A stretch of DNA of 64,000 nt from Candidatus Kuenenbacteria bacterium (lineage in GTDB: Bacteria > Patescibacteriota > Patescibacteriia > UBA2196 > GWA2-42-15), in assembly GCA_012797775.1 (NCBI GenBank), contig JAAZOM010000021.1, positions 6,147-70,146 of the forward strand, given 5' to 3'. Position numbers and translations under genes: made by a program. The notes under the pieces were generated by a model, which saw nothing but the letters and a program-made list of their open reading frames with translations, had not been told where the DNA came from and did no database searches. Below, one piece after another: positions 12,377 to 58,085 of the stretch; the stretch's first letter is position 1; each line of letters begins with the position of its first letter.

Positions 12377-12388
12377 CAAAGGAGGACT

Positions 12389-12469: not shown

Positions 12470-12475
12470 AATTAA

Positions 12476-12517
12476 AAAGCCCAATCTCTAAAATTAAATT
12501 AGATTGGGCTTTTTCTT
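12476..12517. terminator. Bidirectional rho-independent terminator between the tRNA pair (+) and ligA (-)
   Basis: AAGCCCAATCT-loop-AGATTGGGCTT flanked by T/A runs. Confidence 0.6.
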
Positions 12518-12528
12518 TTTGTCTAAAG

Positions 12529-14550
<2,022 letters not shown>

Positions 14551-29224: not shown

Positions 29225-29247
29225 AAATATATTTTTAAAATTTATAA

Positions 29248-30678: not shown

Positions 30679-30690
30679 AATATATTTAAA

Positions 30691-31572: not shown

Positions 31573-31694
31573 GTTGTTTATTATACCTTATTTAAGAAAA
31601 AAAAACACCTGTTAAAACAGGTGTTTTTAAAATTCATTGGCCCAGAAGGGATTACTTTCGGCTTTGGATGGTTAATAATGATTAATAGTTTTGC

Positions 31695-39652: not shown

Positions 39653-40570
39653 TTAATAAATTTTCCAATTTTTACGGTCAGAAATAATTATTCTTTCTTT
39701 TTGGTTGTTATAATATCCCTTGGCAGTAACCTCAATGCCGATTGGCATAAAAATATCACCGGCAATGCTCGGGTTTAATTCATAAATAACCGCGTTATTG
39801 GTTTCATCGTTGATAATACGTATGCGCGGAGCCAAAAATTGACTGCCGCTGATAATGTCAAGGTTCCGATGAGAAGAGGCGGGGAGGGTGCCAGGATCTG
39901 AGGGTATGTGTTTTGTATAAATTGGGGCATCTTGTTCTACCCCACCACCCTCATTTTTGTGCAAAACAATTATTCTACCTTCTTTTTGTGCTGGCCAGTC
40001 GATATCAATTGAATCTGGATAAAAAACTAGCCCAGTTGGCACACTAACTCCAAAATCAATCTCAAAAGAACGGCCCGGCTGTAATCTAACCTTTAGGGGG
40101 TTATTTTTGACAATGTCGGAATTTAGTGTCTCGGTATAGATACAATTTTTATTTCCGCCCTTACTAGAATCAGTAACATCGGCCACAGAACCATATGTAA
40201 AAACAGAGGTTATGTTGGAGTTGTCAAAACATATGACACTGCCTAATTTTTTTATGGGCTTTAGATAGCTTTTCCAAGAAATAATATTATTATCGAGAAA
40301 ACCACTAGCGGGGGTGCCTTCGGTACCGAGCTCGCTCCCATCACGCTCTTTTTCAATTTTATATATAGCTTTTTCCATGGCACTTTCAGCTGCGAAATAA
40401 GCACTCTCTGATTCACCTATGGCTCGGCTGGTCTTGCCAATCCTCAAGATGACATCCGCAACAATAAAAGTAATCATGAGTAAATTGGCCAGAATCAAAA
40501 CGGTTAAAACAAGGGCGATACCCCCTTGATTTGATAGTAATTTATTTAATATTGGTTTCTTATTATTCAT
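39653..40570 (-). CDS. PilX-like minor pilin / pilus assembly protein (PilX N-terminal domain)
   Basis: SNQGGIALVLTVLILANLLMITFIVA matches the PilX N-terminal pattern. The start was moved to the internal MNNKK so that it does not overlap the upstream gene. Confidence 0.5.
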   Translation of the reverse strand: MNNKKPILNKLLSNQGGIALVLTVLILANLLMITFIVADVILRIGKTSRAIGESESAYFAAESAMEKAIYKIEKERDGSELGTEGTPASGFLDNNIISWKSYLKPIKKLGSVICFDNSNITSVFTYGSVADVTDSSKGGNKNCIYTETLNSDIVKNNPLKVRLQPGRSFEIDFGVSVPTGLVFYPDSIDIDWPAQKEGRIIVLHKNEGGGVEQDAPIYTKHIPSDPGTLPASSHRNLDIISGSQFLAPRIRIINDETNNAVIYELNPSIAGDIFMPIGIEVTAKGYYNNQKERIIISDRKNWKIY

Positions 40571-40589
40571 AAATAAAAGATAAAAGATA

Positions 40590-41153
40590 TTAGAATCCGG
40601 CCAGTCTTTGGGGGATTGTCTGCTGAATTGAGAGGTGTCTTTCTTGGCCGGCACGAATATTTTTTAAGTCTAGAATAATCGTTACTTTGGGAAACTGGGT
40701 TGGGGCTACGTTGATATCAGCAAAAGGGTTAGAGGCAGGTGTGATATAAAATTTTAAATCAGAAACAGAGACATCGGCCGGTGGTATCGCAAAAAAATTA
40801 CCACTCAAACTACAGTTAGTAATACAAACTTTTATATTATTATCTTCAAACTTGAAAACAGTCTCATTGCCTCCGCTATCAAGAAGAGCGAGGGTGGTCA
40901 CACCTTCCTGGTTAATATTATTATTATAAAAACTATAATTTACTTTTCCACTTCTAATTTTTTTGGCTACTATTTCCATAATAAACTGGGCTTCTTTTTG
41001 AAGTTTGGAAATCTGGATGGTTCTCTGTTCTGCCTGTAGCGAATAATTATAAATCCCGAGGGTCATGGTAAATAAAACCACAAAAATACCAAGGGCGATA
41101 GTCATTTCTAGTAAAGTAAAACCTTTTTGTTTTTGGAGATGAGACAATATCAT
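40590..41153 (-). CDS. Minor pilin, PilW-like (prepilin-type N-terminal cleavage/methylation domain)
   Basis: QKGFTLLEMTIALGIFVVLF class III signal. Confidence 0.6.
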   Translation of the reverse strand: MILSHLQKQKGFTLLEMTIALGIFVVLFTMTLGIYNYSLQAEQRTIQISKLQKEAQFIMEIVAKKIRSGKVNYSFYNNNINQEGVTTLALLDSGGNETVFKFEDNNIKVCITNCSLSGNFFAIPPADVSVSDLKFYITPASNPFADINVAPTQFPKVTIILDLKNIRAGQERHLSIQQTIPQRLAGF

Positions 41154-41175
41154 AGATAAAAATAATTTTATGCCC

Positions 41176-41733
41176 TTAATCAGCCTGCCAATCGGTGAGT
41201 CGGGCTTCCAGGGAGAAAGTAGAAACCCGCCCCTTTACCTGCCAAGAGACGGTCGAAGTAATAACTTTTTCATAGGCACTATCAGACGGACTGATAGTGA
41301 CCGTTCTTTTAAAGACGGTTTCCTGGGCACTGGGTGAAAAGGTGTGTGAATAGCGACCATTACTGTCAAGATAAAGTTTGCAATTTTCACAGTTATCGAG
41401 GCTGGCATAATTTAGGGTATTGAAAGTGGAAAGAGTATTATTTGACTGGCTATCCACAAAATAACTCTCATTATCATAATCACCGCTAAATATATCAATT
41501 TTACTGGGCTCACTGTCGGCAATGGCGCTATTGTTGTTTCTAATAGAGCGAACTATCTCTATCCCCTCCCGGGCCAAATTGACAACGACTATTTCGTCTT
41601 CGGTCGACTGGATATATTTGAAAGAAGAGAGCATTAAGGTCAGACTGGCCAGGATGCCAATCATCAAAATACCAAGTGCAATAGTGGTCTCGAGCAGGGT
41701 CAATCCTTTTTTGTTTTGATATAAATAAAACAT
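41176..41733 (-). CDS. Minor pilin, PilV-like
   Basis: KKGLTLLETTIALGILMIGILAS class III signal. Confidence 0.6.
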   Translation of the reverse strand: MFYLYQNKKGLTLLETTIALGILMIGILASLTLMLSSFKYIQSTEDEIVVVNLAREGIEIVRSIRNNNSAIADSEPSKIDIFSGDYDNESYFVDSQSNNTLSTFNTLNYASLDNCENCKLYLDSNGRYSHTFSPSAQETVFKRTVTISPSDSAYEKVITSTVSWQVKGRVSTFSLEARLTDWQAD

Positions 41734-41739
41734 AAAAAC

Positions 41740-42324
41740 TTATTGAATGTTTATACGACCAGATTTGACATCCAGAGTAATGGTTTTGGTATAGTTGGTA
41801 TTTTTGAAGCCAATAGTGATCTGTGCTCCCGTGGCCGTATTGGAGCCATTGATATAAACAAGGCCCTGGGGTGGCACAAAGGCAATATCCAGAGAACTTG
41901 GGGGCGTACCACCAGTCGGAGTAATAGCAACCTGATTGATATAAACGTCATCGTCGAGCATGCCAAATGTCTGTACAAGAATATCATTTGTATCATTGGA
42001 ATTGTATATGTGATCTGCGCCAAGGCCATCAGCAAAAAGTAAATATGAACAGTTGGCTTGGCAAGTGGAAAGATGTAGGCCATAACCACCAGGTGGTCGA
42101 GAGCCACTGCTGGTAGTCAAGCCAATAAGGGAGTTGATGTTGGCTTGCCTCAAAATAGTACTCAATCTTTCTGCTTCGTTGTCCAAAGCGGCCTTTTGGC
42201 TAGAGCCACGGAAGTTGGCAATCACCAAAACAGAAATCATAGCAATAATACCAGCGGCGACTACTAATTCGGCGATCGTAAATCCTTTTGTATTTTTTAT
42301 TTTTTTTATCAAGACAATATCCAT
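41740..42324 (-). CDS. Minor pseudopilin, FimT/GspH-like
   Basis: TKGFTIAELVVAAGIIAMISVLV class III signal. The start was set at the internal MDIVLIKK. Confidence 0.6.
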   Translation of the reverse strand: MDIVLIKKIKNTKGFTIAELVVAAGIIAMISVLVIANFRGSSQKAALDNEAERLSTILRQANINSLIGLTTSSGSRPPGGYGLHLSTCQANCSYLLFADGLGADHIYNSNDTNDILVQTFGMLDDDVYINQVAITPTGGTPPSSLDIAFVPPQGLVYINGSNTATGAQITIGFKNTNYTKTITLDVKSGRINIQ

Positions 42325-42329
42325 AAATA

Positions 42330-43199
42330 TTAATAAAGAGTAAGGGAAAGATATTTTGTCAGAATCCACTGCCCACAAAGAAGGGTGATAAGGGCGCTCG
42401 GAGTCAAAAAGGTGCCGAAGGGAATAGCTGATTGCATGCTCTTTTTTTTACTAATTATGAGAAAAATACCGACTGCGGCTCCGGAAATATAAGCGAGGAA
42501 AAGACAAACCAAAGTGTGCGGCCAGCCCAAGAGAAACCCGATTAAAAAACCCAGACGAATATCTCCCCCACCAATCCACTTGCCTTTGGATAAAATAAAT
42601 TGGGCCAAGAAAAAACCACCACCGACCAGTCCGCCCAAAAAATAACCAGAAAAAAATGACCAAAAGCCCTGGGCAGTGGGGGCTGAAAAATAAATTAATA
42701 AATTAAATATTAAGGCAAGAAAAATGGCCGGCAAGGTGACAACATCAGGAATCAAATAATACCTTAGATCATAAATAAAAATAAAAAGAAAAACGGCTGC
42801 AAAAAAACAATAGCCAACAAAATATAAAATAGCAATAGAACCAAGAACAAAAGAAAAATAAATTTTTAAAGAAATAAGCACAAAAATAAGGCCGCAAGCG
42901 AACTCCACTAGGGGATATTGGAGGGAAATTGTCTGCCGGCAATGACGACAATGACCGCGAAGTAACAGGTAACTAATAATGGGCAAATTGTCGTACCAGA
43001 TAATCTGTTTTCTGCATTTTGGACAATGAGAGCGCTCAGTGACAAAAGGTTGCTTCGTATGCAGGCGATAAACCAAGCAATTAATAAAACTCCCTATGAT
43101 CAAACCAAATAAAAAAGAAAAAATAATAAACAAATAAAACATGATATTATTATAACACAAAACCCTTCTTGTGTTGAGAAGAAGGGTTTTGGGTGACAA
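42330..43199 (-). CDS. pilD: Prepilin peptidase (A24 family)
   Basis: N-terminal Zn-binding CxxC pairs (CPKCRKQI...CRHCRQ) and a polytopic DUF/peptidase A24 core. The true start may be the internal MFYLFIIF. Confidence 0.85.
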   Translation of the reverse strand: MSPKTLLLNTRRVLCYNNIMFYLFIIFSFLFGLIIGSFINCLVYRLHTKQPFVTERSHCPKCRKQIIWYDNLPIISYLLLRGHCRHCRQTISLQYPLVEFACGLIFVLISLKIYFSFVLGSIAILYFVGYCFFAAVFLFIFIYDLRYYLIPDVVTLPAIFLALIFNLLIYFSAPTAQGFWSFFSGYFLGGLVGGGFFLAQFILSKGKWIGGGDIRLGFLIGFLLGWPHTLVCLFLAYISGAAVGIFLIISKKKSMQSAIPFGTFLTPSALITLLCGQWILTKYLSLTLY

Positions 43200-43203
43200 G
43201 TAA

Positions 43204-43668
43204 TTACCTTATATAGTTGGGAACACCAGAGTGGACGCCCGAAGACAAACCGCCAGAGGGACTTTCTAAAGTAAAGGTAATAGTATAGGTAGAGCCATCA
43301 CTTGAATAAACATAATCAGACCCACCCGGAGAGGGGTTCGCTTGAATTTTTGCCATATAAGTACTACCGGAAACCGAGGAATTAAAACCGTTGGCAGAAC
43401 TAAGGCTAGTCCTGGGATCTACACCCAGTGCTCCATCTTGTACCACGCCACCAATGGTGCCAGAAGGATAACCGCCCAAGTCATTGAAATAAAGCTCAAG
43501 GGCGGTTTGGATATTGCGAACATCCCCCAACCTGCGGCTATCGCGTGATTTTATCCTGGCGTTGTTTAATGAAGTTACGGCCAAGGTAGCCAAAAGCCCA
43601 ATAATCGCTATGACCAGTAAAAGCTCAATTAAAGTAAACCCGGGTTGACTTTTTTGTTTGTAAAACAT
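43204..43668 (-). CDS. pilA: Type IV major pilin (paralog 1) with S/T/G-rich C-terminal half
   Basis: PGFTLIELLLVIAIIGLLATLAVTSLNNARIKSRDSRR is a classic T4a pilin N-terminus. The C-terminus is Ser/Gly-rich. Confidence 0.8.
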   Translation of the reverse strand: MFYKQKSQPGFTLIELLLVIAIIGLLATLAVTSLNNARIKSRDSRRLGDVRNIQTALELYFNDLGGYPSGTIGGVVQDGALGVDPRTSLSSANGFNSSVSGSTYMAKIQANPSPGGSDYVYSSDGSTYTITFTLESPSGGLSSGVHSGVPNYIR

Positions 43669-43747
43669 ATTTTAAAAATAGTTTCTATTGTATTATTATT
43701 TATTATAGCTTAAAATTATAATAATTAACAACAAAGAACGGTGGATA

Positions 43748-45385
43748 ATGGCAAAAGATAAATACTATAAAAATCTTAAATCTTTTCTTGTTTCGCACAA
43801 ATATCCTTTTTTATTGACTCTAATTATAATATTGGGGCTATTTTTGAGGTTGGTGAATATCGAGAAAGAACCATATTGGTGCGATGAACTTTTAAGTTTG
43901 GGAGTGGCAAAACACTATATTAACAATCTGGCAGAAATGTGGGATTATTTACGATTGGTAGATATACACCCACCGCTCTATTATTATTTGCTTAGTTTTT
44001 GGATAAAAATATTCGGCCACGGAGAAGCCGCCACAAGGGCAATGTCCCTTGTCTTTAGTTTGGGTGTTGTATGGTTAACTTATATAGCCGGAGTAGTTTT
44101 TTTAAAAAACAAAAAAATAGCTATCGTTGCCTCGTTTTTGGCGGCTATTTTGCCAATGCAGATAGAGTATGGCCAAGAGGCTAGACCTTATGCTATTTAT
44201 TGTTTCTTTGGTTTGGCCAGTATTATCCTGCTGGCCAAATATTTTGAAGCTGAAAAAAAGAATAAAAAAATTTTATTATCTTTCTTCTACGCAGCGACAA
44301 GCATAATTGGCCTTTATCTTCACTACTCGTTTCTGCTAATAATAATACCAACGGCCAGCTGGTGGTTGATAAAAGTAATAAAAGAAAAAAAGAGTAAGGA
44401 TTTTCTATGGTGGCTGGGGACTATGACAATAATTTTTCTAGGTTTTTACCCGTGGCTATCAGTATTTATTTTTAAAAGCTTTTTGTCCAATAATGTGATA
44501 ACTAATAGCCAGATACTGATGACCACGGCTAGGCCTTTTGATTTTATGGAAACCGCAATGAGCCAACTAATATGGACGAACAAAATGCCCCTATCCTCTC
44601 CAGTGGAGGTGTTTGCTGCTTTTGTTGTAAAAATTTTTGTATTAATACTTGTACTAATAATTATAACCAACGGAAAAGACCACTTTAAAAAAAATCGGTC
44701 GGCAATAAATTTTATAGGGTGGGTAATAGTCATAAGCAGCCTGCTTTTTCTTTTTATGCCCAGCTCCAATGCTTATACAACGCTCCTGGAAAGACACCTG
44801 ATAGTTGACTCTGTTCTCTTGGCTTTATTGCTGTCTTTTTTGATAGTCTTTGGGTTGCGAAAAAGCCGGTGGATATTGATAGCTTTGGGTTTGATAGTTG
44901 TAAGCTTATTCACTCTAAATATAAAAATATTGAGCGATGATTCACTTTTTGATATCAACAGCCGCTTTGGAATAGTGGCCAATTATATAAATGAGCAATA
45001 CAAGGATGGCGACCTGCTTTTGATCAATGATAGTATAGTTAGATCGGATATGAATTATTATTTGAGAAACGATATTCAGGGCTTTAAGACTATTTATCCA
45101 ACGATTATTGGCGAGAATGATCTTTTGGCAACAAGAGACACCTTGGGTTTTGTGGAAAGCGCTTTTCATTTATTAAAAGAAACTGGTATGGTGGAAAGTC
45201 GCTTAAATATAAAAATGAATTATCTGATAAAAAAATATAACCCAAAAAGGGTCTGGGTTGTTTGTGCTTCTGATGATGTCAAAGACTGGTTTCGGACGGA
45301 CGATTGGCGCATGGCATTTAAACCAATCGGCAAACTCTTCCCGGTAAGTTTATACGTCAAAATAGAACCAACAAAAAATAAATAA
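43748..45385 (+). CDS. GT-C fold membrane glycosyltransferase (PMT_2 / ArnT / GT39-GT83-like), 545 aa
   Basis: It has 11+ TM helices. An acidic motif sits in the first extracytoplasmic loop (EPYWCDELLSLG). The architecture is family-typical (RPYAIYCFFG...) and there is a C-terminal soluble domain. Confidence 0.75.
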   Translation: MAKDKYYKNLKSFLVSHKYPFLLTLIIILGLFLRLVNIEKEPYWCDELLSLGVAKHYINNLAEMWDYLRLVDIHPPLYYYLLSFWIKIFGHGEAATRAMSLVFSLGVVWLTYIAGVVFLKNKKIAIVASFLAAILPMQIEYGQEARPYAIYCFFGLASIILLAKYFEAEKKNKKILLSFFYAATSIIGLYLHYSFLLIIIPTASWWLIKVIKEKKSKDFLWWLGTMTIIFLGFYPWLSVFIFKSFLSNNVITNSQILMTTARPFDFMETAMSQLIWTNKMPLSSPVEVFAAFVVKIFVLILVLIIITNGKDHFKKNRSAINFIGWVIVISSLLFLFMPSSNAYTTLLERHLIVDSVLLALLLSFLIVFGLRKSRWILIALGLIVVSLFTLNIKILSDDSLFDINSRFGIVANYINEQYKDGDLLLINDSIVRSDMNYYLRNDIQGFKTIYPTIIGENDLLATRDTLGFVESAFHLLKETGMVESRLNIKMNYLIKKYNPKRVWVVCASDDVKDWFRTDDWRMAFKPIGKLFPVSLYVKIEPTKNK

Positions 45386-45389
45386 TATT

Positions 45390-46139
45390 ATGCCAAAAAT
45401 ACACCCGGGCAAAAGAGTAATAGCCGTTTTGCCAGCTTATAATGCCGAGAAAACCCTAAAAAAAACACTCGACGATATACCAAAAGATTGGGTAGATGAA
45501 ATAATATTGGTAGATGACGCCAGCGGAGACAAAACAGTTGAATTGGCCAGATTTTTGGGGATAAAAACATTCACTCATAATAAAAATTTGGGTTACGGAG
45601 GAAACCAAAAAACTTGTTATACAGAAGCCCTAAAACTGGGAGCCGATATCGCCATAATGATACACCCGGACCACCAATATGATCCGCGCTTGGTGCCAGA
45701 TTTACTTTTGCCACTTTTAAGAGAGGACGCAGATGCTGTTTTTGGATCAAGGATGATGAGACCGGGTGGAGCCAGAAATGGAGGCATGCCCAGCTGGAAA
45801 TACTGGGCCAATATTTTTTTAACTAAGTTGGAAAACCTGATACTTGGCCTTAGGTTGACCGAATATCATTCCGGTTTTCGCGCTTATTCAAAAAAAGCTC
45901 TAGAACAAATAAATTTTTTGGACAATTCGGATGATTTTGTTTTTGATACAGAGATAATTATACAACTTCGAATAAAAAAAATGCATATCCAAGAAGTGCC
46001 AATTAGTACTCGTTATTTTAAAGAAGCTTCGATGATAGGATTCAAGAGAAGCCTGATCTACGGCCTGAGTATTATAAAAAATTTGGGAGAATATATTTTA
46101 TTTAGGTTGGGCTGGAAAAAATACAAAAAATTTGGATAG
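45390..46139 (+). CDS. GT2 polyprenol-phosphate glycosyltransferase (DPM1 / GtrB / ArnC-like)
   Basis: AVLPAYNAEKTL...EIILVDDASGD...GYGGNQKTCY is the GT2 signature of dolichol/undecaprenol-phosphate sugar synthases. Confidence 0.85.
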   Translation: MPKIHPGKRVIAVLPAYNAEKTLKKTLDDIPKDWVDEIILVDDASGDKTVELARFLGIKTFTHNKNLGYGGNQKTCYTEALKLGADIAIMIHPDHQYDPRLVPDLLLPLLREDADAVFGSRMMRPGGARNGGMPSWKYWANIFLTKLENLILGLRLTEYHSGFRAYSKKALEQINFLDNSDDFVFDTEIIIQLRIKKMHIQEVPISTRYFKEASMIGFKRSLIYGLSIIKNLGEYILFRLGWKKYKKFG

Positions 46140-46163
46140 TTAATACAAATTACAGATGTTAAA

Positions 46164-46571
46164 ATGATATTTAAAAAGATAATTAACTATTTTCTCCAAA
46201 AAAAATTTATCCGCTTCGCTATTTCCGGAGGCATAGCCACGGTAGTGGATATCTCCCTGCTATATATACTAACAGAATGGTTGGGCATCTGGTATTTAAT
46301 ATCCTCCGTCTTTTCTTTTCTGGTGGGCTCAATTACTCATTTCTCAATTAGCCGCGCGTGGGTATTTGATGATAGGGGCAAAAAATACTGGCAACAATAT
46401 AAATCTTTTTTTGTTATACACTTGGTCGGGCTGGCGATAAATACGGCCGCACTTTATATTCTCGTAGAATATTTTGATGTTTATTATATAGCCGCCAAAA
46501 TTATTACGGTTATTTTTGGTGTAAGTTGGACATTTTGGGCTAACAAAAAATTAACTTTTGAAAAAACCTAA
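46164..46571 (+). CDS. GtrA-family small membrane protein (lipid-linked sugar flippase-like)
   Basis: 135 aa with 4 TM helices. FIRFAISGGIATVVDISLLYIL is GtrA-like. Confidence 0.8.
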   Translation: MIFKKIINYFLQKKFIRFAISGGIATVVDISLLYILTEWLGIWYLISSVFSFLVGSITHFSISRAWVFDDRGKKYWQQYKSFFVIHLVGLAINTAALYILVEYFDVYYIAAKIITVIFGVSWTFWANKKLTFEKT

Positions 46572-46602
46572 AAGAATAGTAACGAAAAATAAAATTTTAC
46601 AA

Positions 46603-46640
46603 CAAAAACGCCCCTCATGCGTAAGGGGCGTTTTATAAAA
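46603..46640. terminator. Bidirectional terminator between the GtrA-like gene (+) and the pilin gene (-)
   Basis: AACGCCCCT-CATGCGTA-AGGGGCGTT hairpin with flanking A/T runs. Confidence 0.6.
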
Positions 46641-46648
46641 ACCGAAAT

Positions 46649-47122
46649 TTACTGAATACCGTTGGGGGTGGCGGTTCTCGCGCCTGAGGCTAGACCACCA
46701 GTAGCTCCCTCAAGACTGAAAGTAATCATATAGCTTTGGGTGCTAGCAGCACAAGTGGTGGGCGCAGCTGAAGTGGCACTACAATAAGTGTAATCAGCAC
46801 CATTTGGTGTCGGATTGCTCGGGACTTGACCCATATAAACTGTGCCAGAGGTAGAACCAGTAGCAGTAAATCCACCGGCGCTAAGAGCTGCATAATTACT
46901 AGAACCAAGTGTCTGGCCTGTGCCAACGCTTGGATAGCCATTTTGATCAACAAAATATAATTCTAAAGCAGTCTGGATTTGTTTGATATCAGAAACACGT
47001 TTGGCGTCTCTGGATTTTTGACGAGCATTGTTTAGAGCCACGACAGAAAGAGTAGCTAGAAGACCAATAATGGCGATAACAACCAAGAGCTCAATCAAAG
47101 TAAAACCTTTTCTATTTTTCAT
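46649..47122 (-). CDS. pilA: Type IV major pilin (paralog 2) with S/T/A-rich C-terminal half
   Basis: RKGFTLIELLVVIAIIGLLATLSVVALNNARQKSRDAKR. The C-terminus is GSTSGTVYMGQVPSNPTPNGADYTYCSATSAAPTTCAASTQ. Confidence 0.8.
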   Translation of the reverse strand: MKNRKGFTLIELLVVIAIIGLLATLSVVALNNARQKSRDAKRVSDIKQIQTALELYFVDQNGYPSVGTGQTLGSSNYAALSAGGFTATGSTSGTVYMGQVPSNPTPNGADYTYCSATSAAPTTCAASTQSYMITFSLEGATGGLASGARTATPNGIQ

Positions 47123-47293: not shown

Positions 47294-48499
47294 CTAAAAG
47301 CCAGAAGACATATTATACATAGGCATAATGACAGCCGCGACCATGATACCGACCCCCACGCCCATAACTACCATAATCATAGGCTCTATAAGACTAATAA
47401 GGTTGGCGACCAAGGACTCGACCTCTCTAGCGTAGAAATCGGTCATTTTGCTCAAAACATCACTGATGCGGCCTGTTTTTTCGCCAACCGAAAGCATGTG
47501 GGCAATCATAGGCGGTATCTCCTTGCTCTTCAAAAATAACGTGGCAATAGGATTGCCGTCCTGGACATCTTTGGCTGTGCGGTCGATTAGGTCTTTGTAG
47601 TAAGCATTGCCCACAACATCACTGACAATATTCAAAGAGGTAGTAATGGGGACCCCGCCTTCCACTAAAGTTGCCATGCTGCGAGTAAAGCGCACGAGAT
47701 AAATACGCTGGAAAAGTGTGCCAAAAACTGGCAATTTCAACTTGAGATAGTCCCACTTGCGGCGAGGCCCGGGCTGACGAAGTAGATATCTCATGCCGAC
47801 AACGAAAATAACAGCAAAAATAATTATGGCCCACCAATAATTTACCAAGAAAGCACTGGTGCCGATCAAAAGTCTCGTGGCCAGCGGCAATTCGCCGCCA
47901 GTTTCCGATAATATAGCAGTAATTTTTGGTACAACGAAAACCATCATTATAATACCGACGCCGCCGAGGGCCGCCAAAATAAAGGCGGGATAAATCATTG
48001 AGCCCTTGATCTTACTCATAAGAGCATAATCTTTTTCTTGCTCATCAGCCAGATAGTTTAAAACTTTGTCCAAGCTGCCCGACGTCTCCCCGGATCGCAC
48101 CATGGCAATAAAAAATGGACTAAATATCTTTTTGTGGCGCTCCAGAGAGTTGGAAAGCCTTTCGCCGCCCTCTACATCATCGGCGATTTCGGAGATGGCA
48201 GACTTAAAAGCATTGTTTTCTGTCTGTTCTATCAAAATACGCAATGACTGCACAATGGGAAGAGTGGCTGTAGACATAACTGCTAATTGACGAGAAAACA
48301 TAACTAGATCTTTTATTTTTACTCTATTAAAAAATGGCAGACTGATATTGAGCGCTGTTTTTTTGGCTTGAGCTTCAAGAAAAATAATAGCAACCCCTTG
48401 TTCACTAAGGGTTGCCACGGCATCATTTTTGTTGATAGACTCGATAAGCCCCTCAACACTCTGTCCTTCTTTGTTTTTGCCTCTATATTTGAATATCAT
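47294..48499 (-). CDS. pilC: Type IV pilus assembly platform protein (GspF family)
   Basis: Two T2SSF repeats, 3 TM helices, 401 aa. Confidence 0.85.
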   Translation of the reverse strand: MIFKYRGKNKEGQSVEGLIESINKNDAVATLSEQGVAIIFLEAQAKKTALNISLPFFNRVKIKDLVMFSRQLAVMSTATLPIVQSLRILIEQTENNAFKSAISEIADDVEGGERLSNSLERHKKIFSPFFIAMVRSGETSGSLDKVLNYLADEQEKDYALMSKIKGSMIYPAFILAALGGVGIIMMVFVVPKITAILSETGGELPLATRLLIGTSAFLVNYWWAIIIFAVIFVVGMRYLLRQPGPRRKWDYLKLKLPVFGTLFQRIYLVRFTRSMATLVEGGVPITTSLNIVSDVVGNAYYKDLIDRTAKDVQDGNPIATLFLKSKEIPPMIAHMLSVGEKTGRISDVLSKMTDFYAREVESLVANLISLIEPMIMVVMGVGVGIMVAAVIMPMYNMSSGF

Positions 48500-48502
48500 A
48501 TA

Positions 48503-49591
48503 TTAATTGGCAACATGAAATTTTTGAGCCATGGCCTGAAAATCTATTTTATCAACAGCCGCCTTTAGGGCATCAGTATAACTAACTTCTCCGGTTTTTA
48601 CCAACTCCAAGAGTGTCTGGTCTAGGCTACGCATCCCCTCTTCTTTGGACATTTGGATGACGCTTGTCAGCTGAGCAAAGCGTCCTTCTCTGATTAGGGC
48701 GCGGGAAGCAGAGTTGGAAATAAGAATTTCCATAACGGTAATCTCACCACCGCCACGACGCGGCAAAAGCTGCTGGACCAAAACCCCCAACAAGATCTCA
48801 GCAAGAGTATCTTTTGTTTTTTCACTTTCACTTTCGGGCACCAGCTTCACGAGATTATCAACAGCATCGGCAACAGAATTGGACTCGGTAATAGCTATTA
48901 CTAAGCGGCCACTTTCTATAAAACTAAAAATATTATTTAAAATATCAGCACTTTCTATCTTGGAAAGAAAAACAATATCAACGTCGCTGTCTTTGGAAAA
49001 CTTGAGGGCGTCAAGATAGCTGCCGCTATCGCGGCCTATCTCCCGCTGTTCAATAATGCTCTTTTCAGAAGTAAGAATATACTCTACAGGCTGTTCAAGA
49101 GTCAAAATATATTTTGACTCTGTTTTGTTAATATTATTTAAAAGAGACAAGGCTGTTGATGTCCGCCCGGAACCGTGGTGTCCAGAGATGATTATCAGAC
49201 CGCTTTTGTTTTTGGTTAAGTCGGCAAATTCCCGACTAATACCCAAAAAATCTGGGTCATTGATGACAGTCGGGATATAAGTAAAAATCATTGACAGACT
49301 ATTTTTTTGATAAAAGATATGAATTTTGAAACGAATATCACCCTCAAATGTGTGGGTAATAATAATAGATTTTTTTTGTTCAAATTCAGCTACTTCCTCT
49401 TTCGATAAAATAATTTTGACCACATCCTCCAAAAATTCATTACCAACAATATCTTCACTATCAAGAAGAACAAGGCGTTGATCTGAACGGACAATGGGCT
49501 TGGAGCCAGGCTCTAAATGAAAACAAGAAGCACCACTTTTAACAACACTATTTATTATTTTGTTGAGTATAAGGCTGCTTTGAGTAGACAT
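48503..49591 (-). CDS. pilT: PilT-like retraction ATPase homolog with degenerate Walker A (GHHGSGRTS; Lys replaced by Arg) and non-canonical Walker B/Asp box
   Basis: PilT-like N-terminal domain and C-terminal His-box region. The CGG Arg codon was confirmed on the DNA at ~49172. The expected ...GEMRD... region reads DVDIVFLSKIESAD. Confidence 0.75.
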   Translation of the reverse strand: MSTQSSLILNKIINSVVKSGASCFHLEPGSKPIVRSDQRLVLLDSEDIVGNEFLEDVVKIILSKEEVAEFEQKKSIIITHTFEGDIRFKIHIFYQKNSLSMIFTYIPTVINDPDFLGISREFADLTKNKSGLIIISGHHGSGRTSTALSLLNNINKTESKYILTLEQPVEYILTSEKSIIEQREIGRDSGSYLDALKFSKDSDVDIVFLSKIESADILNNIFSFIESGRLVIAITESNSVADAVDNLVKLVPESESEKTKDTLAEILLGVLVQQLLPRRGGGEITVMEILISNSASRALIREGRFAQLTSVIQMSKEEGMRSLDQTLLELVKTGEVSYTDALKAAVDKIDFQAMAQKFHVAN

Positions 49592-49621
49592 ATTGGTTGG
49601 GACATTAGAATTATTTAAAGA

Positions 49622-51352
49622 TTATTCTTTGGTAACTGTTAATATTTCTTCAACGGTAGTTTTGCCTTCGAGGGCCTTGATAATACCATCCTGTTTGAGG
49701 GTCAACATGCCTTGTTGCACAAAAATTTCTTTGACTTTGTCAAGACTAGAACCTGAATAAATAATATTTTTTATCTCCTCGCTGATGTCCAAAACTTCAA
49801 CGATGGCGGTGCGTCCCTTGTAGCCCGTCTGGTCGCAACGAGAACAACCCTTGCCATGATAAATGGTTTTTAGGCTTTCTTCGTTTATGCCCTTTGGTAG
49901 ACTACCCTTGGGGATAGATTGAAAAATTTCTTTGGCTTGATCAACAAGGGTTTTGGGCATGGGTACTGGCTCTTTGCACTCCGCGCAGATACGCCGAACG
50001 AGCCTTTGGGCAATAATAACATTTAGGGTAGAGGCCAAAAGAAATGGTTCGACCTTCATGTCAATCAGACGGGGAATGGCGCCAAAAGCGTCATTGGTGT
50101 GAAGGGTGGACAAAACAGTGTGTCCAGTAAGGCTGGCATGGATGGCCAGTTCGGCTGTTTCGGCGTCGCGTATTTCGCCAACCATGATAATATCTGGATC
50201 TTGACGGAGAATGGAGCGCAAGCCAGAAGCAAAAGTAAATTTCACTTCTGGGTGAACCTGTGATTGGTTGACACCAGTCAAATAATATTCTACTGGGTCT
50301 TCAAGGGTAACAATGTTTACTTCTTCTTTGTTGAGGATCTGCAGGGCGGCATAAAGAGTGGTTGACTTACCGGAACCAGTAGGGCCAGTAACAAGAAACA
50401 TGCCATGCGGTTTAACAATGTTGTTGTACATCAATTCTAAATTTTTACCCTCAAAGCCCAAATCCTCCCAAGTGGAAACGCCGTGAGAAGTATCCAGAAT
50501 CCTCATTACCACCTTTTCTTGACTATATAGGGGAAGCGTAGATACACGGAAATCGATATTTTTGTTGTTGATATTGAGACGAATGCGGCCGTCCTGGGGA
50601 ATTCTGGTTTCGTCAATTTTTAGATTGGCCATGACTTTGATGCGTGAAACTATAGCGGCATGAACATATTTCGGCAAAAGAAGAGATGTTTGCAAAAGCC
50701 CGTCAATACGATAACGCACTCGTGTCTCTCCGGTTGTTGGCTCTATATGAACATCTGAAGCGCCAAGCTCTACGGCGTGTTTCAAAATAACAGAGACCAT
50801 CTTGGAAATGGGCGCTGATTTGATAACCTGATCCATTTTGTCTTCGCCAGGTTCTTCGGTCTCAAATTTATCTTCAGCAACTTTTAAAGCTTCACTGACT
50901 TCAGTTTTGAGGCTACCATATTGCTGCAAAGCTTTATTGAAGCTGCTCGGAGAGGTGATATAATATTCAATCTGCAACCCTTTGCCTCGAGCTACAAAAT
51001 CGGCAGCTTCTCTGGCTTTTATATTTAGGGCGTCAACAAGGGCAACTTTGAGCAAATCATTTTCTTTGGCGAAAACAACCATTTGATAGTTTTCTGCCAA
51101 GTCTCTAGGGAGAATAAAAAGTATGGCGCCAGGAATGCGCTCCTCCCCCAAAACTGTATAGGGTAAGTTAAAAATTGCCGCTTTAGCCTTGGTGATATCT
51201 TCTTCGGAAATATCTTTTGTCTTTTGGAGGGCTTGTTCTAGTTTTGGTAAATCTAACTCTAATTTTAGCTGGTTAATGTCAGCAGCTGTAATTTTGCCAT
51301 TAGATAAAAAATAATCAAGAATTTTATCCTTGAGATCCTCTGTTTTTTTCAT
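49622..51352 (-). CDS. pilB: Type IV pilus assembly ATPase (GspE family)
   Basis: N-terminal GSPII domain, Walker A GPTGSGKSTT, and the tetracysteine CAECKEP...CSRCDQTGYKGR. Confidence 0.9.
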   Translation of the reverse strand: MKKTEDLKDKILDYFLSNGKITAADINQLKLELDLPKLEQALQKTKDISEEDITKAKAAIFNLPYTVLGEERIPGAILFILPRDLAENYQMVVFAKENDLLKVALVDALNIKAREAADFVARGKGLQIEYYITSPSSFNKALQQYGSLKTEVSEALKVAEDKFETEEPGEDKMDQVIKSAPISKMVSVILKHAVELGASDVHIEPTTGETRVRYRIDGLLQTSLLLPKYVHAAIVSRIKVMANLKIDETRIPQDGRIRLNINNKNIDFRVSTLPLYSQEKVVMRILDTSHGVSTWEDLGFEGKNLELMYNNIVKPHGMFLVTGPTGSGKSTTLYAALQILNKEEVNIVTLEDPVEYYLTGVNQSQVHPEVKFTFASGLRSILRQDPDIIMVGEIRDAETAELAIHASLTGHTVLSTLHTNDAFGAIPRLIDMKVEPFLLASTLNVIIAQRLVRRICAECKEPVPMPKTLVDQAKEIFQSIPKGSLPKGINEESLKTIYHGKGCSRCDQTGYKGRTAIVEVLDISEEIKNIIYSGSSLDKVKEIFVQQGMLTLKQDGIIKALEGKTTVEEILTVTKE

Positions 51353-51361
51353 AAAATAAAA

Positions 51362-51682
51362 TTACTGAGCGAAATAAGGAGCAAAGGGATCGGCTTTGCC
51401 AACATTGCTAGGCACTATTGGCCAGTCACCTATTTTTTTTAACTTTGCGAAGAGACTATCTTCCAAAATGGCTGCCTCTTTTTGGGCGGGGTTAGCGTTG
51501 GCTCCGGTTTGAATAGTGGTGTTAATTAGGCTATTAACCTCACTATTATTATAAATATTGGCCACTGAATCATTTTTGGAATTATTAAAATAAATATAAA
51601 TATTTAGACCGGCCATCAAAGCTATGACCGCTAAATAGGTGATTAATTTCTTTTTTGATAATTGAGAGCGATTGGCCAACAT
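51362..51682 (-). CDS. Small membrane-anchored protein in the pilus operon (possible PilP-like component)
   Basis: 106 aa with an N-terminal TM helix. Assigned by position only. Confidence 0.4.
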   Translation of the reverse strand: MLANRSQLSKKKLITYLAVIALMAGLNIYIYFNNSKNDSVANIYNNSEVNSLINTTIQTGANANPAQKEAAILEDSLFAKLKKIGDWPIVPSNVGKADPFAPYFAQ

Positions 51683-51686
51683 AAAA

Positions 51687-52310
51687 CTATTTAAGATAAT
51701 AAGCAGTTAAAAATACGGATAGCGAGCCATCAGAAGGGGTAAAATTGAAAGAGTTGATGTCCATCAGTCTGATATTGTTTTCGATAAGGGCAAAAAGCTG
51801 TTTAACTTTATTGTAACTAATATTGGAAAGGCTAAAATTAATACTAAGGGATTTTAGTTGTCGAGTAACGTTTTTTTCTGCCTGAGCGCCCCCAGAACCC
51901 GAAGGAATTTTTTGCGGTTCAGGTTTTTTTTCTTCATTTAGTTGGATACTAATGCTCTCTACCTTGGCCTTAACTTGTTCTGACAGGCTCTCAAGGTTGA
52001 TATAAAGATTGGCTTCATCAGGACCAATGGGAATAATTTCGCCAACCTTTTGCTTGTCCTCAGAGCTTATGGCATCATAACTCATAATGATTTTTTTGTA
52101 TTTTTGGATCTGGGACATTTTCTGGTTGAATTCTGATTCTTTGGCCGAATAAAGAGTCTGATTTGCTTTATATTTGTTGTTCTCTGGGCTAATAAGAAAA
52201 AAATAACCCGGGAGTAATAAAATAAAAAAAAGTAAAAAGACTAAAACCCCAAAATGTTTTTTATAAAATGGTATATTCTTTTTTTGTTCTTCGGTGACGG
52301 TTGTTTCCAT
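51687..52310 (-). CDS. PilO-like pilus assembly protein
   Basis: N-terminal TM helix and a coiled coil. Assigned by position and architecture in the pilMNO block. Confidence 0.45.
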   Translation of the reverse strand: METTVTEEQKKNIPFYKKHFGVLVFLLFFILLLPGYFFLISPENNKYKANQTLYSAKESEFNQKMSQIQKYKKIIMSYDAISSEDKQKVGEIIPIGPDEANLYINLESLSEQVKAKVESISIQLNEEKKPEPQKIPSGSGGAQAEKNVTRQLKSLSINFSLSNISYNKVKQLFALIENNIRLMDINSFNFTPSDGSLSVFLTAYYLK

Positions 52311-52322
52311 ATCTTATTTTTA

Positions 52323-53357
52323 TTATTGCGGTTGAGTATTGTTGTCGGCATTACCCACCTTTTCAATCACAGAGTGGGGAACAATAAAACTTATACTAAA
52401 AGACACACCGGGATCACCTGGCTGTTCTGTTTTTTCAAAGGTCAGATTGGTCAATTTTACATCTTGGTAAATCGGGCTGGAATTTAAAACTACTAGCTCT
52501 TCTGCCATGGAGCGCAAGTTTAGAGCTTTGCCGCCGAGATCAACACCGCCGAGGTCAGTCACCGATAAACCCGTAAAATAAACGTTGCCAGCTGTATGAT
52601 TTTCCAGGGTGGGGAAAAACTGACTCCAGTAGACATGATTCTTGAAAACATTGTTCAGATTATTAAACTGCTGGGAAAGACTACCATAATCTTTTATCTC
52701 TGATTCAAATTCGGTTATTTTTTTATCTATCAATATGAGTTTTTCTTTAAGCAGATTTATATCCTCATTGTAGCGCTTATTTTTGCTCTCAAAATAGATA
52801 TAGGGAGAAAAAACAACTAACAAGCTGATAATAAAAATAAAAAAATAGCTCCAAATAATCTGGGTGTCGGTAAACCCCTTGGGGCTGCTGGGGAGTAAGT
52901 TCACAACCAATCCTGGCTCATCAGTATTTTTATTGGCAGACTTGACCTCATTGAAACCACCAATTTCTTTCTTGACCTGGACCACCTTGGTGGAAGGAAT
53001 AATTTTGGCGGGAGGAGAATAAGTGCTTACTGGAGAATGGGTCGGGGCAGCGGGTGTTGTTTTTGGGGGCTGAATTTTGACCTCATTCACGGCGACAACT
53101 GACGATTCTTTTGGGCTTTTTAATTTCTTCTTAAATAGACGACCAAAAAAAGACGGCTTGGGTGTCTTTGGCTTGCCAACAACATGCGAAGGTTGCGTGT
53201 TGGCTATAATTTTTTTGCCATCATCTTTTGCGGGCATATGAAGACCGGGGCTTACTGGGTCCTTTTTGGGACTGTGGTGCCTGGCTTGCTGTAATTCTCC
53301 GGGTAAAAAATTTATGCCCTCGTCTTTGTCGTTGTTATTTTTTGGGTGATCAAACAT
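52323..53357 (-). CDS. PilN-like pilus assembly protein with long Pro/Lys-rich disordered N-terminal region
   Basis: A TM helix at ~170 aa followed by coiled-coil and periplasmic domains. It sits directly downstream of pilM. Confidence 0.5.
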   Translation of the reverse strand: MFDHPKNNNDKDEGINFLPGELQQARHHSPKKDPVSPGLHMPAKDDGKKIIANTQPSHVVGKPKTPKPSFFGRLFKKKLKSPKESSVVAVNEVKIQPPKTTPAAPTHSPVSTYSPPAKIIPSTKVVQVKKEIGGFNEVKSANKNTDEPGLVVNLLPSSPKGFTDTQIIWSYFFIFIISLLVVFSPYIYFESKNKRYNEDINLLKEKLILIDKKITEFESEIKDYGSLSQQFNNLNNVFKNHVYWSQFFPTLENHTAGNVYFTGLSVTDLGGVDLGGKALNLRSMAEELVVLNSSPIYQDVKLTNLTFEKTEQPGDPGVSFSISFIVPHSVIEKVGNADNNTQPQ

Positions 53358-53363
53358 AAAAAA

Positions 53364-54563
53364 TTATATTTCTCTCATAGCCAGTCCAACAGCAACAGAG
53401 AACCGCGGACCGATTTCGGTCAAGACTGGTTTTAGCTCCAAGGGATAAACTATCTTATCCCAAGGGTCGCCGATAATAACTTTGATGTCTAAGATTTTGG
53501 AGAGAAAAGATGGCAATTCCGGCAAAAACGAACTGCCTCCGGTTAAAATTATTTTCTCTACCTTGTTCTGAGTTGGATTTTGCGCCAAATAAATATCCAG
53601 AGAATATTTTATCTCATTAATAATCGGATTGATGGCTGTTTTTATCGTATCCGGCAGACCGCCTGGGCCAAGCGAAGAAAAGCCAATATCTCTTTTAAAC
53701 TGTTCGGCCCGACCGAGATCCACGTTTAAACTAGACATTATTGATTTGGTTAGGGTGGTACCGCCGACGTCAATACTTCTGGTGAGGACTGGGATGCCAC
53801 TTTCTATAATGCAAATATTACTAGAAACAGCCCCAACATCAACGATCATAATAGAGGCTGGATCATTGCCGGCCAAAGAGCGCTCAAGAGCAAAGGATTC
53901 TGTTTCTAGGCTGACAAGCTCCAGCTCGGCAGCACGGAAAATCCGAATATATCTTTCTACTATTTTTTTGGGTGCGGCAGTTAGAAGAACTTTTGTGTTA
54001 TTTTTTAGTAGTTGATTGACTGGAGTGCTGCCCTTGACGGTTCCTTTGTGGCTAAAAATTTTGTCAAGGAAGGAGCCCTGCTTGGCATCACCCGCTTCGC
54101 CATTTGGAGAGACGGCATTCTCTTTATTGTTCGGGTTTGTGTTGTTAATCGGCGGAATAACACTCTTTTTGTCTGGCCGCACGGGGACGACCTTCCAGTC
54201 GAGGGTCATCTCTTCCATGGGAAGGGGAATAAATTTTTTGGCTTCCCACTGAATAGCTTTGGCTAGGTCTTTTTTGCTCATGGAAGGGAGATTGATAATC
54301 GAACTAAAAACAGAAAAGCTAGGCAGGGCGGCAACAACTTTTTTGCTGCTCATGCGACTTTTTTTGCAGATATCTTTGATAATGTTGACAATTTTATCCT
54401 CCATCTCTTTGGATGAGGAACGGATAATGTCAGTGGGCTGCTCTACATAACCATAGGTTAAAAGTAAGGCTCGACCCCCCTTGTCTTGTAGTTCCACAAT
54501 TTTAATGGCGGAAGTACCTAAATCAACGCCTAAATAGCTTCTCTTTGGACTAATTATATCCAT
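53364..54563 (-). CDS. pilM: Type IV pilus assembly protein PilM (actin-like ATPase fold)
   Basis: SYLGVDLGTSAIKIVEL...; the pattern DVGAVSSNICIIE...GGT is PilM/FtsA-like. There is a ~60 aa insertion. Confidence 0.8.
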   Translation of the reverse strand: MDIISPKRSYLGVDLGTSAIKIVELQDKGGRALLLTYGYVEQPTDIIRSSSKEMEDKIVNIIKDICKKSRMSSKKVVAALPSFSVFSSIINLPSMSKKDLAKAIQWEAKKFIPLPMEEMTLDWKVVPVRPDKKSVIPPINNTNPNNKENAVSPNGEAGDAKQGSFLDKIFSHKGTVKGSTPVNQLLKNNTKVLLTAAPKKIVERYIRIFRAAELELVSLETESFALERSLAGNDPASIMIVDVGAVSSNICIIESGIPVLTRSIDVGGTTLTKSIMSSLNVDLGRAEQFKRDIGFSSLGPGGLPDTIKTAINPIINEIKYSLDIYLAQNPTQNKVEKIILTGGSSFLPELPSFLSKILDIKVIIGDPWDKIVYPLELKPVLTEIGPRFSVAVGLAMREI

Positions 54564-57548: not shown

Positions 57549-58085
57549 TCACGCCGGATACCTTCCAAGCGGGAATAAAACTTGAGATCGATTTGGTCCG
57601 TATGGGTATTTACTTAGGTTTTCCACCGCCAACCAGGTATCCACGACTCTTTTTAGAAGATCCGGGTTCATTTTAGAAAAAAGTCGTTGGGCTTTTTGTT
57701 TGAAGGATTTATTTTGAACCGCAGACCAAGCACAATCAAGTTGTAATACCACATGGACTATACCCCCTTCGCACGAAAAATCCAAAGGGAAAAGTCTGCA
57801 GAATAGCGGTCTTTTCTCGTGGATAGAACAGAGCCCATTTTCTCTCCACGGGCAAGGGGGTTTATAGATCTCAACGTCTATTGGCCCCTCCAAGAAAGGG
57901 TTGATAAATTTACTCTCGTTGACCTGCAGAATTTCAACCCCTGCCTCATAAAGTGGCTCTTCTTCTTCTGGCATGAGCCAAATATAGCCGCGACAATCAT
58001 CGTGGGTGCATGACGAACAGGCTCGACTAATGCCACTCAATAAAACATCCAAGGCTGCATACAATTGATCAAGATTTGCTATCAT
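57549..58085 (-). CDS. YkgJ / UPF0153 family cysteine-cluster protein (putative Zn/Fe-chelating domain)
   Basis: CSSCTHDDC followed by CSIHEKRPLFCRLFP, which matches the family motif C.IY..RP..CR.FP. It overlaps the rSAM gene by 4 bp. Confidence 0.6.
   Translation of the reverse strand: MIANLDQLYAALDVLLSGISRACSSCTHDDCRGYIWLMPEEEEPLYEAGVEILQVNESKFINPFLEGPIDVEIYKPPCPWRENGLCSIHEKRPLFCRLFPLDFSCEGGIVHVVLQLDCAWSAVQNKSFKQKAQRLFSKMNPDLLKRVVDTWLAVENLSKYPYGPNRSQVLFPLGRYPA

Follow-up and report, generated by a model that had tools for sequence, protein, structure and literature searches.

Our subject is a 64,000-nt stretch of a Candidatus Kuenenbacteria genome, from the candidate phyla radiation (CPR) or Patescibacteria, and we refer to the whole of this stretch as the window. 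Inside its type IV pilus (T4P) locus the genes for a GT-C fold glycosyltransferase, a GT2 glycosyltransferase and a GtrA-family membrane protein form a cassette between two pilin genes (Table 1). We have found that the link of the GT-C module to pilin genes is non-random and has been maintained in evolution. We lean towards reading the cassette as a glycosylation system of three components that works outside the cytoplasm from a lipid-phosphate-monosaccharide donor and was recruited into the T4P operon, with the flanking pilins as its likeliest acceptors. A pilin acceptor is plausible, and what suggests it is the gene neighbourhood only. The original prediction, which described a dedicated pilin O-glycosylation module in a CPR-like organism, is thus partly supported: the module has the identity proposed for it and its tie to pilin genes has been kept, and we infer the acceptor, the sugar and the role of GtrA. 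The organism is indeed a CPR member, all five open reading frames (ORFs) were recovered at exactly the predicted coordinates and strands, and the surrounding T4P genes are all on the minus strand, so that the cassette is the sole opposite-strand element in a complete and otherwise single-strand T4P locus.

We collected 22 further loci of the GT-C family from related genomes (given L-numbers here) and mapped them with the window proteins as queries, which makes 23 loci including the window. The GT-C gene lies beside major pilins in a T4P operon in 12 of the 23, from at least five lineages and in seven arrangements. The order is pilins-GTC-GT2-PilD in L006, L015 and L018, pilins-Wzy_C-GTC-GT2-PilD in L003 and L019, pilins-PilD-GTCx3-GT2-minor pilins in L008, GTC-GT2-pilins-PilD in L012 and pilin-GTC-PilD in L016. 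An inverted cassette stands between two pilins in the window, L001 and L002, and between a pilin and PilD in L123. Where the genes are co-directional, their ORFs abut or overlap pilD or one another by 0-4 nt. The linkage between GT-C and pilin has therefore survived repeated rearrangement. It is also far above chance to find it in 12 of 23 loci and at least five lineages, because the pilus locus takes up only some 15 kb in a genome of roughly 1 Mb (an estimate from typical CPR genome sizes). In a neighbour-joining tree the pilus-linked GT-Cs span most of the deep branches, and the 11 that are not linked fall mainly into two derived clades. Besides the major pilins, no second recurrent neighbourhood was seen for the family in the 23 loci.

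The GT-C protein itself matches the Pfam model PMT_2 (E-value 4.8e-9; 37.1 bits against a cutoff of 26.1). Among 31 family members PMT_2 matches 30 and PMT matches 16, and both models also cover enzymes without protein acceptors. Hydropathy and the structure model together give about 11 transmembrane helices with the N-terminus and the K/R-rich loops inside, and the model places a C-terminal alpha/beta domain (residues ~396-545) outside. An acidic pair, D46-E47, follows directly after the first transmembrane helix and is the sole acidic pair within the first 110 residues. It is at least 90% conserved in 31 orthologues, is put outside by the predicted topology and may be the catalytic motif. 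All the invariant residues are outside as well (D46-E47, R146-P147-Y148, H192-Y193-S194, W276, S340 and Y343). A polytopic fold with an N-terminal helix module and an acidic motif in the first extracytoplasmic loop place the protein in class A of the GT-C superfamily (STT3, PMT and ArnT type), and the PMT_2-like enzyme with a loop-1 acidic motif that had been proposed is what we see. The family is sharply bounded, with 31 homologues at E<=1e-68 and the next match at 1e-20. About 55-65 clusters (50% identity) match the GT-C over its full length including the C-terminal domain, in a superfamily of 33,399 matches at E<=1e-10, and one homologue that is 49% identical also comes from Candidatus Kuenenbacteria.

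Assigning this family to a characterised one is more difficult. Neither the single sequence nor a 31-sequence profile matched the sequence of any solved structure, solved PMTs included (phmmer and profile searches), and the GT-C is therefore placed by fold comparison alone. NCBIfam gave weak matches only across the 31 members, to the MT1671-type mannosyltransferase, Agl23 and archaeal STT3. Because no ArnT, YfhO or teichoic-acid model in NCBIfam or Pfam matches any of the 31 members, a better fit to lipid A, peptidoglycan or teichoic-acid families, which would have spoken against a protein O-glycosyltransferase, was not found. There is no Pfam match to a MIR domain, and the outside loop 242-287 has only 46 residues. 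Bacterial Pmt enzymes are also without this domain, so its absence excludes only a PMT of the eukaryotic type.

The GT2 protein is of the DPM1-like kind that had been predicted. Its only solved relative by sequence is the Pyrococcus furiosus dolichol-phosphate-mannose synthase (DPMS) 5mlz (E 1.3e-6), and its top NCBIfam matches (AglJ, PpgS and dolichyl-phosphate hexose transferase, 1e-20 to 1e-15) are all far below the equivalog cutoffs, with a further weak match to PgfS. The AglJ, PpgS and dolichyl-phosphate hexose transferase families are makers of lipid-phosphate monosaccharides. The GT-A domain resembles that of lipid-phosphate-sugar synthases, and neither C-terminal transmembrane segments nor a fused GtrA-like four-helix anchor accompanies it; hydropathy shows no membrane helix in its 249 aa. 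The third protein belongs to the GtrA family, again as predicted (GtrA_DPMS_TM 2.3e-28 over residues 17-132 of 135; 3-4 hydrophobic segments by hydropathy), and no solved structure is related to it by sequence. The Pfam model takes its name from the archaeal synthase, to whose membrane domain it is homologous. The GT2 and GtrA may therefore correspond to the two parts that are fused in the archaeal DPMS type of enzyme, or GtrA could be a flippase.

The tripartite nature of the module needs some qualification. All three families are present in the window, but GtrA lies beside the GT-C only there and in L001 and L123 (3 of 23 loci), and the conserved unit is the GT-C with the GT2, which adjoin each other in about 15 of the 23. 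The GT2 and the GT-C show correlated divergence (Mantel r 0.70, p 0.0002), which is consistent with a two-gene module, and shared species history would give the same signal.

Several observations on the two gene families among the relatives can be recorded here. The GT-C is multiplied in some loci, with three tandem paralogues in L008 (8427-13169) and a second, divergent paralogue between GtrA and a pilin in L001 (12892-14505) and L123 (10082-11734); this second copy is absent from the window. L004, L013 and L014 come from metagenome-assembled genomes labelled 'uncultured Gammaproteobacteria', and GC content is 0.52-0.65 in L004, L007, L012, L014 and L125 against 0.32-0.49 in the other tabulated loci. 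Either this group (L004, L007, L012, L013, L014 and L125) is mis-binned or the GT-C family reaches beyond typical CPR genomes. In L015 (11503-12235) the GT2 beside the GT-C is split into overlapping ORFs of 72 and 204 aa, a frameshift pseudogene or an assembly error. L037 (6914-8182) has a DPM1-like GT2 (Glycos_transf_2 5.8e-28) directly upstream of an orphan pilin, outside a pilus operon and with no GT-C nearby. Three ORFs that recur upstream of non-pilus GT-Cs (about 160, 174 and 172 aa) were considered as possible pilins and rejected; judged by eye they look like a Fur-like regulator, a peroxiredoxin and a membrane protein.

The two flanking pilins are paralogues (57% identical) that both carry N_methyl and the GFTLIELL N-terminus, as had been stated. 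They have what is expected of type IV pilins: a class III signal peptide (G/FTLIE), a long N-terminal helix, a globular beta domain and a PilD in the locus. In the AlphaFold2 model of pilin2 (pLDDT 90.7) alpha1 spans residues 9-60 and a beta sheet comes after it, and the nearest solved folds, with weak scores, are gonococcal pilin, PAK pilin and EpsG. Pilin2 has more than 7,400 relatives at E<=1e-10, and an identical sequence is recorded from Candidatus Kuenenbacteria. Outside the helix, Ser/Thr is conserved at T94, T105, T141, T150 and T152 across 46 of its homologues, with T105 inside a nearly invariant loop V-P-S-N-P-T-P-x-G. It is speculation, but Thr105 and the last-strand residues Thr150 and Thr152 could be candidate glycosylation sites.

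A mechanism can be sketched from these assignments. At the cytoplasmic face the GT2 would load polyprenyl phosphate with a hexose or N-acetylhexosamine taken from a nucleotide sugar, as its family resemblance suggests. The GtrA protein might then flip the lipid-linked sugar to the outer leaflet, or else anchor or stimulate the helix-free GT2, a part that would be dispensable or replaced in most relatives. At the outer face the GT-C, with its D46-E47 and other invariant residues on that side, would pass the sugar to a Ser/Thr of the pilin while the pilin is still membrane-resident with its globular domain outside, before PilD processing and assembly.

The GT-C of the window is one of several enzymes that occur beside this pilin subfamily. 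L114 and L118 have GT-Cs of the TMEM260_N type, neither with an adjacent GT2, and the L114 enzyme is 27% identical to the window GT-C over 117 residues. In L035, whose pilin is 61% identical, a YfhO-family GT-C directly follows the pilin (5.3e-24), and in L003 and L019 an O-antigen-ligase-like Wzy_C and TPR protein lies between the pilins and the GT-C (9.4e-23 and 4.3e-24). Four unrelated kinds of glycosyl-transfer enzyme (PMT_2-type, TMEM260-type and YfhO-type GT-Cs and the Wzy_C ligase-like protein) thus occur beside the same pilin subfamily, which we read as independent support for pilin glycosylation; most loci are without any of them. We would suggest tentatively, and short of calling it probable, that the pilin-pilD junction is a hot spot which, in one large group of Patescibacteria, took up outward-facing glycosyl-transfer enzymes of at least four unrelated kinds, each independently. 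If this is true, pilus glycosylation would be rapidly diversifying in these episymbionts, perhaps under phage or host-recognition selection, and the window GT-C would be the first O-glycosyltransferase of the PMT type with a type IV pilin as its dedicated substrate.

Two further points concern the pilin side of these loci. A perfect match between a pilin C-terminal tail (LEG..GGL.SG.HTA..GIQ) and the presence of a GT-C was set aside as a sampling artefact, as seven of nine independently sampled loci with pilins 59-77% identical to pilin2 over their full length are without a GT-C. Between PilD and the minor pilins of L003 (6496-7995) is a 499-aa protein that looks secreted and has a Rha78A-like Ig domain and, below the Pfam cutoff, a weak PKD-like match; it may be a pilus-associated carbohydrate-binding adhesin.

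A number of results weigh against a dedicated pilin glycosylation system, and looking at them together shows where the original prediction was too strong. The pilus-specific role it proposed agrees with the 12 loci in which the GT-C adjoins pilins, but the other 11 of the 23 are at unrelated places, beside Fur-like, peroxiredoxin and GlmS genes, PheT, ABC transporters or C25 peptidases, neighbours with nothing in common. When nine loci were picked by way of close pilin2 homologues (59-77% identity), regardless of whether they encode a GT-C, a GT-C of any type stood at the pilin site in only two (L114 and L118), and none lies between the pilins and PilD in about eight complete T4P loci of more distant CPR lineages. 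The module is therefore clearly not required for pilus function, and it is patchy rather than a fixed part of the pilus system. The pilin-pilD junction of L120 carries an unrelated histidine kinase and so tolerates unrelated insertions. The richness in Ser, Thr, Gly and Ala that had been noted in the C-terminal halves of the pilins is real, with 28-30% Ser+Thr and 49-60% Gly+Ala+Ser+Thr in the globular part against a mean of 13.6% Ser+Thr in the other proteins of the locus. However, such a composition is common in type IV pilins generally and is generic, not diagnostic, and in the model of pilin2 it belongs to a folded beta domain, with no disordered region or Ser/Thr tract. The best NCBIfam match of the GT-C is the MT1671-type mannosyltransferase of Mycobacterium tuberculosis (45 bits against a cutoff of 900), whose substrate we take to be lipoarabinomannan and not a protein. 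Finally, the fold comparison confirmed a class A GT-C fold, but the protein resembles Pmt4, ArnT, STT3 and ALG12 about equally and the ranking did not separate protein-acting from lipid-acting enzymes, and the acceptor is therefore not identified by fold.

The scattered half of the family would also suit a GT-C/GT2 pair that O-glycosylates surface proteins in general, whether or not these include pilins, and sits in the pilus operon for co-expression with abundant surface proteins. Streptococcal GtrB/PgtC2 (PMC12041528), actinobacterial Pmt (PMC8698208) and the GT39 of C. bescii (PMC6151902) each have several substrates, and two lipoprotein-like C25 peptidases come after the pair in L125. A general role of this kind would predict neither that major pilins are the only recurrent neighbourhood, kept through many rearrangements, nor that the non-pilus neighbourhoods share no genes; alternative Ser/Thr-rich substrates near the non-pilus pairs do not recur either, and we regard it as unlikely, if worth keeping in view. 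Nor does the acceptor need to be a protein. The system could act on a wall glycopolymer, a teichoic-acid-like polymer or a glycolipid, as do CsbB/GtcA/YfhO, ArnC/ArnT or mycobacterial PpgS/Rv3779, and be a passenger in the pilus locus. A passenger would hardly be expected to turn up next to pilins again and again, in different lineages and whatever the gene order, the module has no genes of wall-polymer biosynthesis around it in the window or its relatives, and no family member matches ArnT, YfhO or teichoic-acid models. These points make a non-protein acceptor decidedly unlikely in our view, even though glycans are the usual targets of three-component systems (PMC11127046, PMC8035078), the best global superposition is with ArnT (TM score 0.61), the weak NCBIfam matches include the MT1671-type enzyme for the GT-C and PpgS for the GT2, and the junction has taken an unrelated gene in L120.

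A pilin could also be glycosylated first by another enzyme, such as an O-oligosaccharyltransferase of the Wzy_C/PglL-like kind, with the GT-C adding a branch sugar much as GtrABC does on O-antigen. The Wzy_C and TPR protein directly between the pilins and the GT-C/GT2 pair of L003 and L019 could be such an enzyme, and the three tandem GT-C paralogues of L008 and the two of L001 and L123 would suit stepwise additions. Most pilus-linked loci have a GT-C and GT2 alone, however, and no Wzy_C or other glycan-assembly gene occurs in the window, which leaves secondary decoration highly improbable. What we consider least credible, to the point of nearly discounting it, is that there is no functional link and that a mobile unit of two or three genes landed by chance in a permissive gap between duplicated pilins. 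The cassette does run on the opposite strand and seems to have promoter-like and terminator-like signals of its own, and the family occurs at many other genomic places. Against this, the GC content of the cassette (0.37-0.40) matches that of its flanks, no flanking repeats or mobility genes were found around it, the genes are co-directional and abut pilD in several lineages, and the frequency of the pilin linkage is far above what chance would give. The preferred reading remains that of a lipid-phosphate-monosaccharide-dependent system with the flanking pilins as likeliest acceptors.

Among known systems the closest in logic is TfpW of Pseudomonas aeruginosa group IV strains, a pilin-arabinosylating GT-C encoded beside pilA that in reconstitution needs a GtrA-like protein for pilin glycosylation (bioRxiv 10.1101/2020.04.19.049825). 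As in the window, a GT-C adjoins the major pilin gene, and the two also share a polyprenyl-phosphate-linked monosaccharide donor made in the cytoplasm (predicted for the window), a small GtrA-like membrane protein (PsPA7_6247 for TfpW) and an acidic motif in loop 1. However, a regular expression for YX6PFX7P, found in periplasmic loop 4 of TfpW, has no match in the window GT-C, the loop-1 motif is DE instead of DDx, and the C-terminal TPR of TfpW has no counterpart, PMT_2 being the only Pfam match and the model showing an alpha/beta domain (residues 400-545). As it has neither the proline motif nor DDx nor a TPR domain, the window GT-C is not a member or homologue of the TfpW family, which the original prediction had cited for comparison. 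The systems differ as well in the source of the donor, a one-step GT2 synthase against D-arabinofuranose genes of the DprE1/DprE2 type, and in the host, a monoderm-like CPR bacterium against a proteobacterium. TfpO/PilO and PglL (Wzy_C family) also modify pilins, are often directly beside pilA and have Wzy_C and TPR homologues in L003 and L019. Their fold is a different one, as is their mechanism, in which a diphosphate-linked glycan is transferred en bloc, and none is found in the window. It is plausible that the window system is a further form of the pilin-adjacent glycosylation known from TfpW and TfpO.

Nearest in enzyme family are the bacterial PMT-type enzymes. Compared with protein O-mannosylation in actinobacteria by the polyprenol-phosphate-mannose synthase Ppm1 and by Pmt (GT39), the similarity of the window GT-C to characterised PMTs is marginal, with no match to solved PMT sequences, and its family has its own C-terminal domain and sits inside a pilus operon. 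Nearest in cell-envelope setting are two other systems. In streptococci, which are monoderm, a GT2 (GtrB) makes the undecaprenyl-phosphate-linked sugar and the YfhO-type GT-C PgtC2 O-glucosylates Ser/Thr of membrane-anchored extracytoplasmic proteins (PMC12041528). The window GT2 weakly matches PgfS of the streptococcal Pgf system, and L035 has a YfhO-type GT-C at its pilin-adjacent site. PgtC2 differs from the window GT-C in being of the YfhO and not the PMT_2 type, its acceptors are disordered Ser/Thr-rich tails and not folded pilins, and the GtrB/PgtC2 genes are not beside those of their substrates. The other is the GT39 enzyme of C. bescii, which is encoded near its cellulase substrates and glycosylates them (PMC6151902). 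TMEM260, whose type is represented in L114 and L118, is a protein-specific O-mannosyltransferase (PMC10214176).

Likeness to the glycan-modifying systems is of a more general kind. The Gtr O-antigen system (GtrA/GtrB/GtrC) and CsbB/GtcA/YfhO also combine a GT2 lipid-phosphate-sugar synthase, a GtrA-family protein and an outside-acting GT-C (PMC8035078, PMC11127046). Their acceptors are polysaccharides, though, the window GT-C is unrelated to GtrC or YfhO, and GtrA is absent from most relatives of the window module. GtrB-type synthases carry C-terminal membrane helices, whereas the window GT2 has none. The likeness to lipid A modification by ArnC/ArnT is at the level of the fold only, with no ArnT model match among the 31 members and no arn or other 4-amino-4-deoxy-L-arabinose biosynthesis genes in the window, and CPR genomes have been reported to lack lipid A synthesis (PMC5220378).

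Type IV pili are the only conserved surface machine that CPR bacteria are known to use for attachment to host cells. The main study of Saccharibacteria pili predicted pilin O-glycosylation by software alone, left the enzyme unnamed and called for the machinery to be identified (PMC11623550 / PMC12206443). Our full-text literature search found no paper that links a GT-C or GT2 gene to CPR pilus loci. With defined candidate genes and a small pilin substrate that is modelled as a folded domain, heterologous co-expression could address the question without culturing. If our reading is true, a PMT-type route dependent on a monosaccharide-lipid would join the two known pilin-adjacent routes (TfpO/PglL and TfpW), and a compact three-gene system could be of use in glycoengineering.

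Table 1. Features of the pilus locus, positions counted within the window.
Feature	Position	Strand	Description
Minor pilins (three) and PilX-like protein	39653..42378	-	N_methyl matches; weak PilX_N match
PilD prepilin peptidase	42330..43199	-	A24_N_bact 1.3e-31, Peptidase_A24 3.1e-14
pilin1, paralogous prepilin	43204..43668	-	154 aa, no Cys; N_methyl 4.7e-8; second candidate acceptor
AT-rich gap, divergent, pilin1 to GT-C	43669..43747		79 bp; promoter-like hexamers on both strands
GT-C fold glycosyltransferase, PMT_2 type	43748..45385	+	545 aa; candidate lipid-carrier-to-acceptor sugar transferase
GT2 glycosyltransferase	45390..46139	+	249 aa; Glycos_transf_2 1.2e-21; candidate polyprenyl-phosphate-hexose synthase
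GtrA-family small membrane protein	46164..46571	+	135 aa; candidate lipid-linked-sugar flippase or GT2 membrane partner
GC-rich hairpin GCCCCT-catgcgta-AGGGGC	46610..46629		A-run on one flank, T-run on the other; between convergent GtrA and pilin2
pilin2, prepilin	46649..47122	-	157 aa; N_methyl 6.7e-10, weak T2SSG; probably major pilin, candidate acceptor
PilC, PilT, PilB, PilO-like ORF, PilN, PilM	47294..54563	-	assembly machinery upstream of pilin2

The assembly machinery was recognised by its Pfam matches (T2SSF 1.5e-59; T2SSE 3.5e-13 and 8.2e-133; PilN 2.3e-5; PilM_2 1.5e-47). Pilin1 is the first gene of a block with PilD and the minor pilins, and its orthologues hold the same position in L001 and L002. 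Promoter-like sites lie in the gap between pilin1 and the GT-C (43731-43702 on the minus strand and 43671-43699 on the plus strand) and upstream of pilin2 (47268-47240). As the count of such sites in the region is not above shuffle expectation, statements on transcription units are tentative. The hairpin, which was seen in the sequence and in a minus-strand terminator scan, comes directly after the pilin2 stop and looks like a bidirectional terminator, as a consensus match only. A signature of inversion or mobility around the cassette was also considered and dropped, the hits of the repeat search being AT-rich chance matches alone.

Relatives of the pilus locus differ from the window in two ways. 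A small response-regulator gene lies between PilB and PilT in L114-L118, L119 and L122, and the window is without it, its PilB and PilT being adjacent at 49591/49622. In L114-L118, L121 and L122 an NAD-dependent DNA ligase, GatC and GatA directly follow the minor pilins; in the window (10323-14538) the ligase and GatA are separated from the end of the pilus locus by about 25 kb. Because of this displacement, an insertion or rearrangement seems to account for the block at about 14.6-39.6 kb, which includes the low-GC region, RpoD, DnaG and MurB.

The low-GC region in that block (27863-33197, minus strand) has a GC content of 0.31 against about 0.40 elsewhere, a strongly negative GC skew and four large ORFs (453, 476, 293 and 500 aa), whose only Pfam match is a DUF2807 adhesin-head domain. 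It was considered as a glycan island and rejected, since it holds no glycan genes, and it may be an acquired surface-protein island. Elsewhere in the window, at 3584-4213 and 4708-8037 (minus strand), there are two proteins with a Por_Secre_tail C-terminal sorting domain, one of 1109 aa with M23 peptidase and BACON domains, and similar matches occur in L119 and L123. This domain is associated with type IX secretion and would not be expected in a CPR bacterium, whose envelope should lack an outer membrane. At 12389-12469 (plus strand), 12 nt after a normal tRNA-Met, ARAGORN calls an 81-nt tRNA-Cys with anticodon ACA; in the Rfam alignment (52.2 bits) its anticodon arm has 12 nt against 6 in the model, and both the expanded loop and A34 are unusual. 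Lastly, 57549-59380 (minus strand) encodes a 432-aa radical SAM/SPASM protein and, after it, a CxxCxxCC zinc/iron-chelating protein, which together resemble a peptide-maturation pair.

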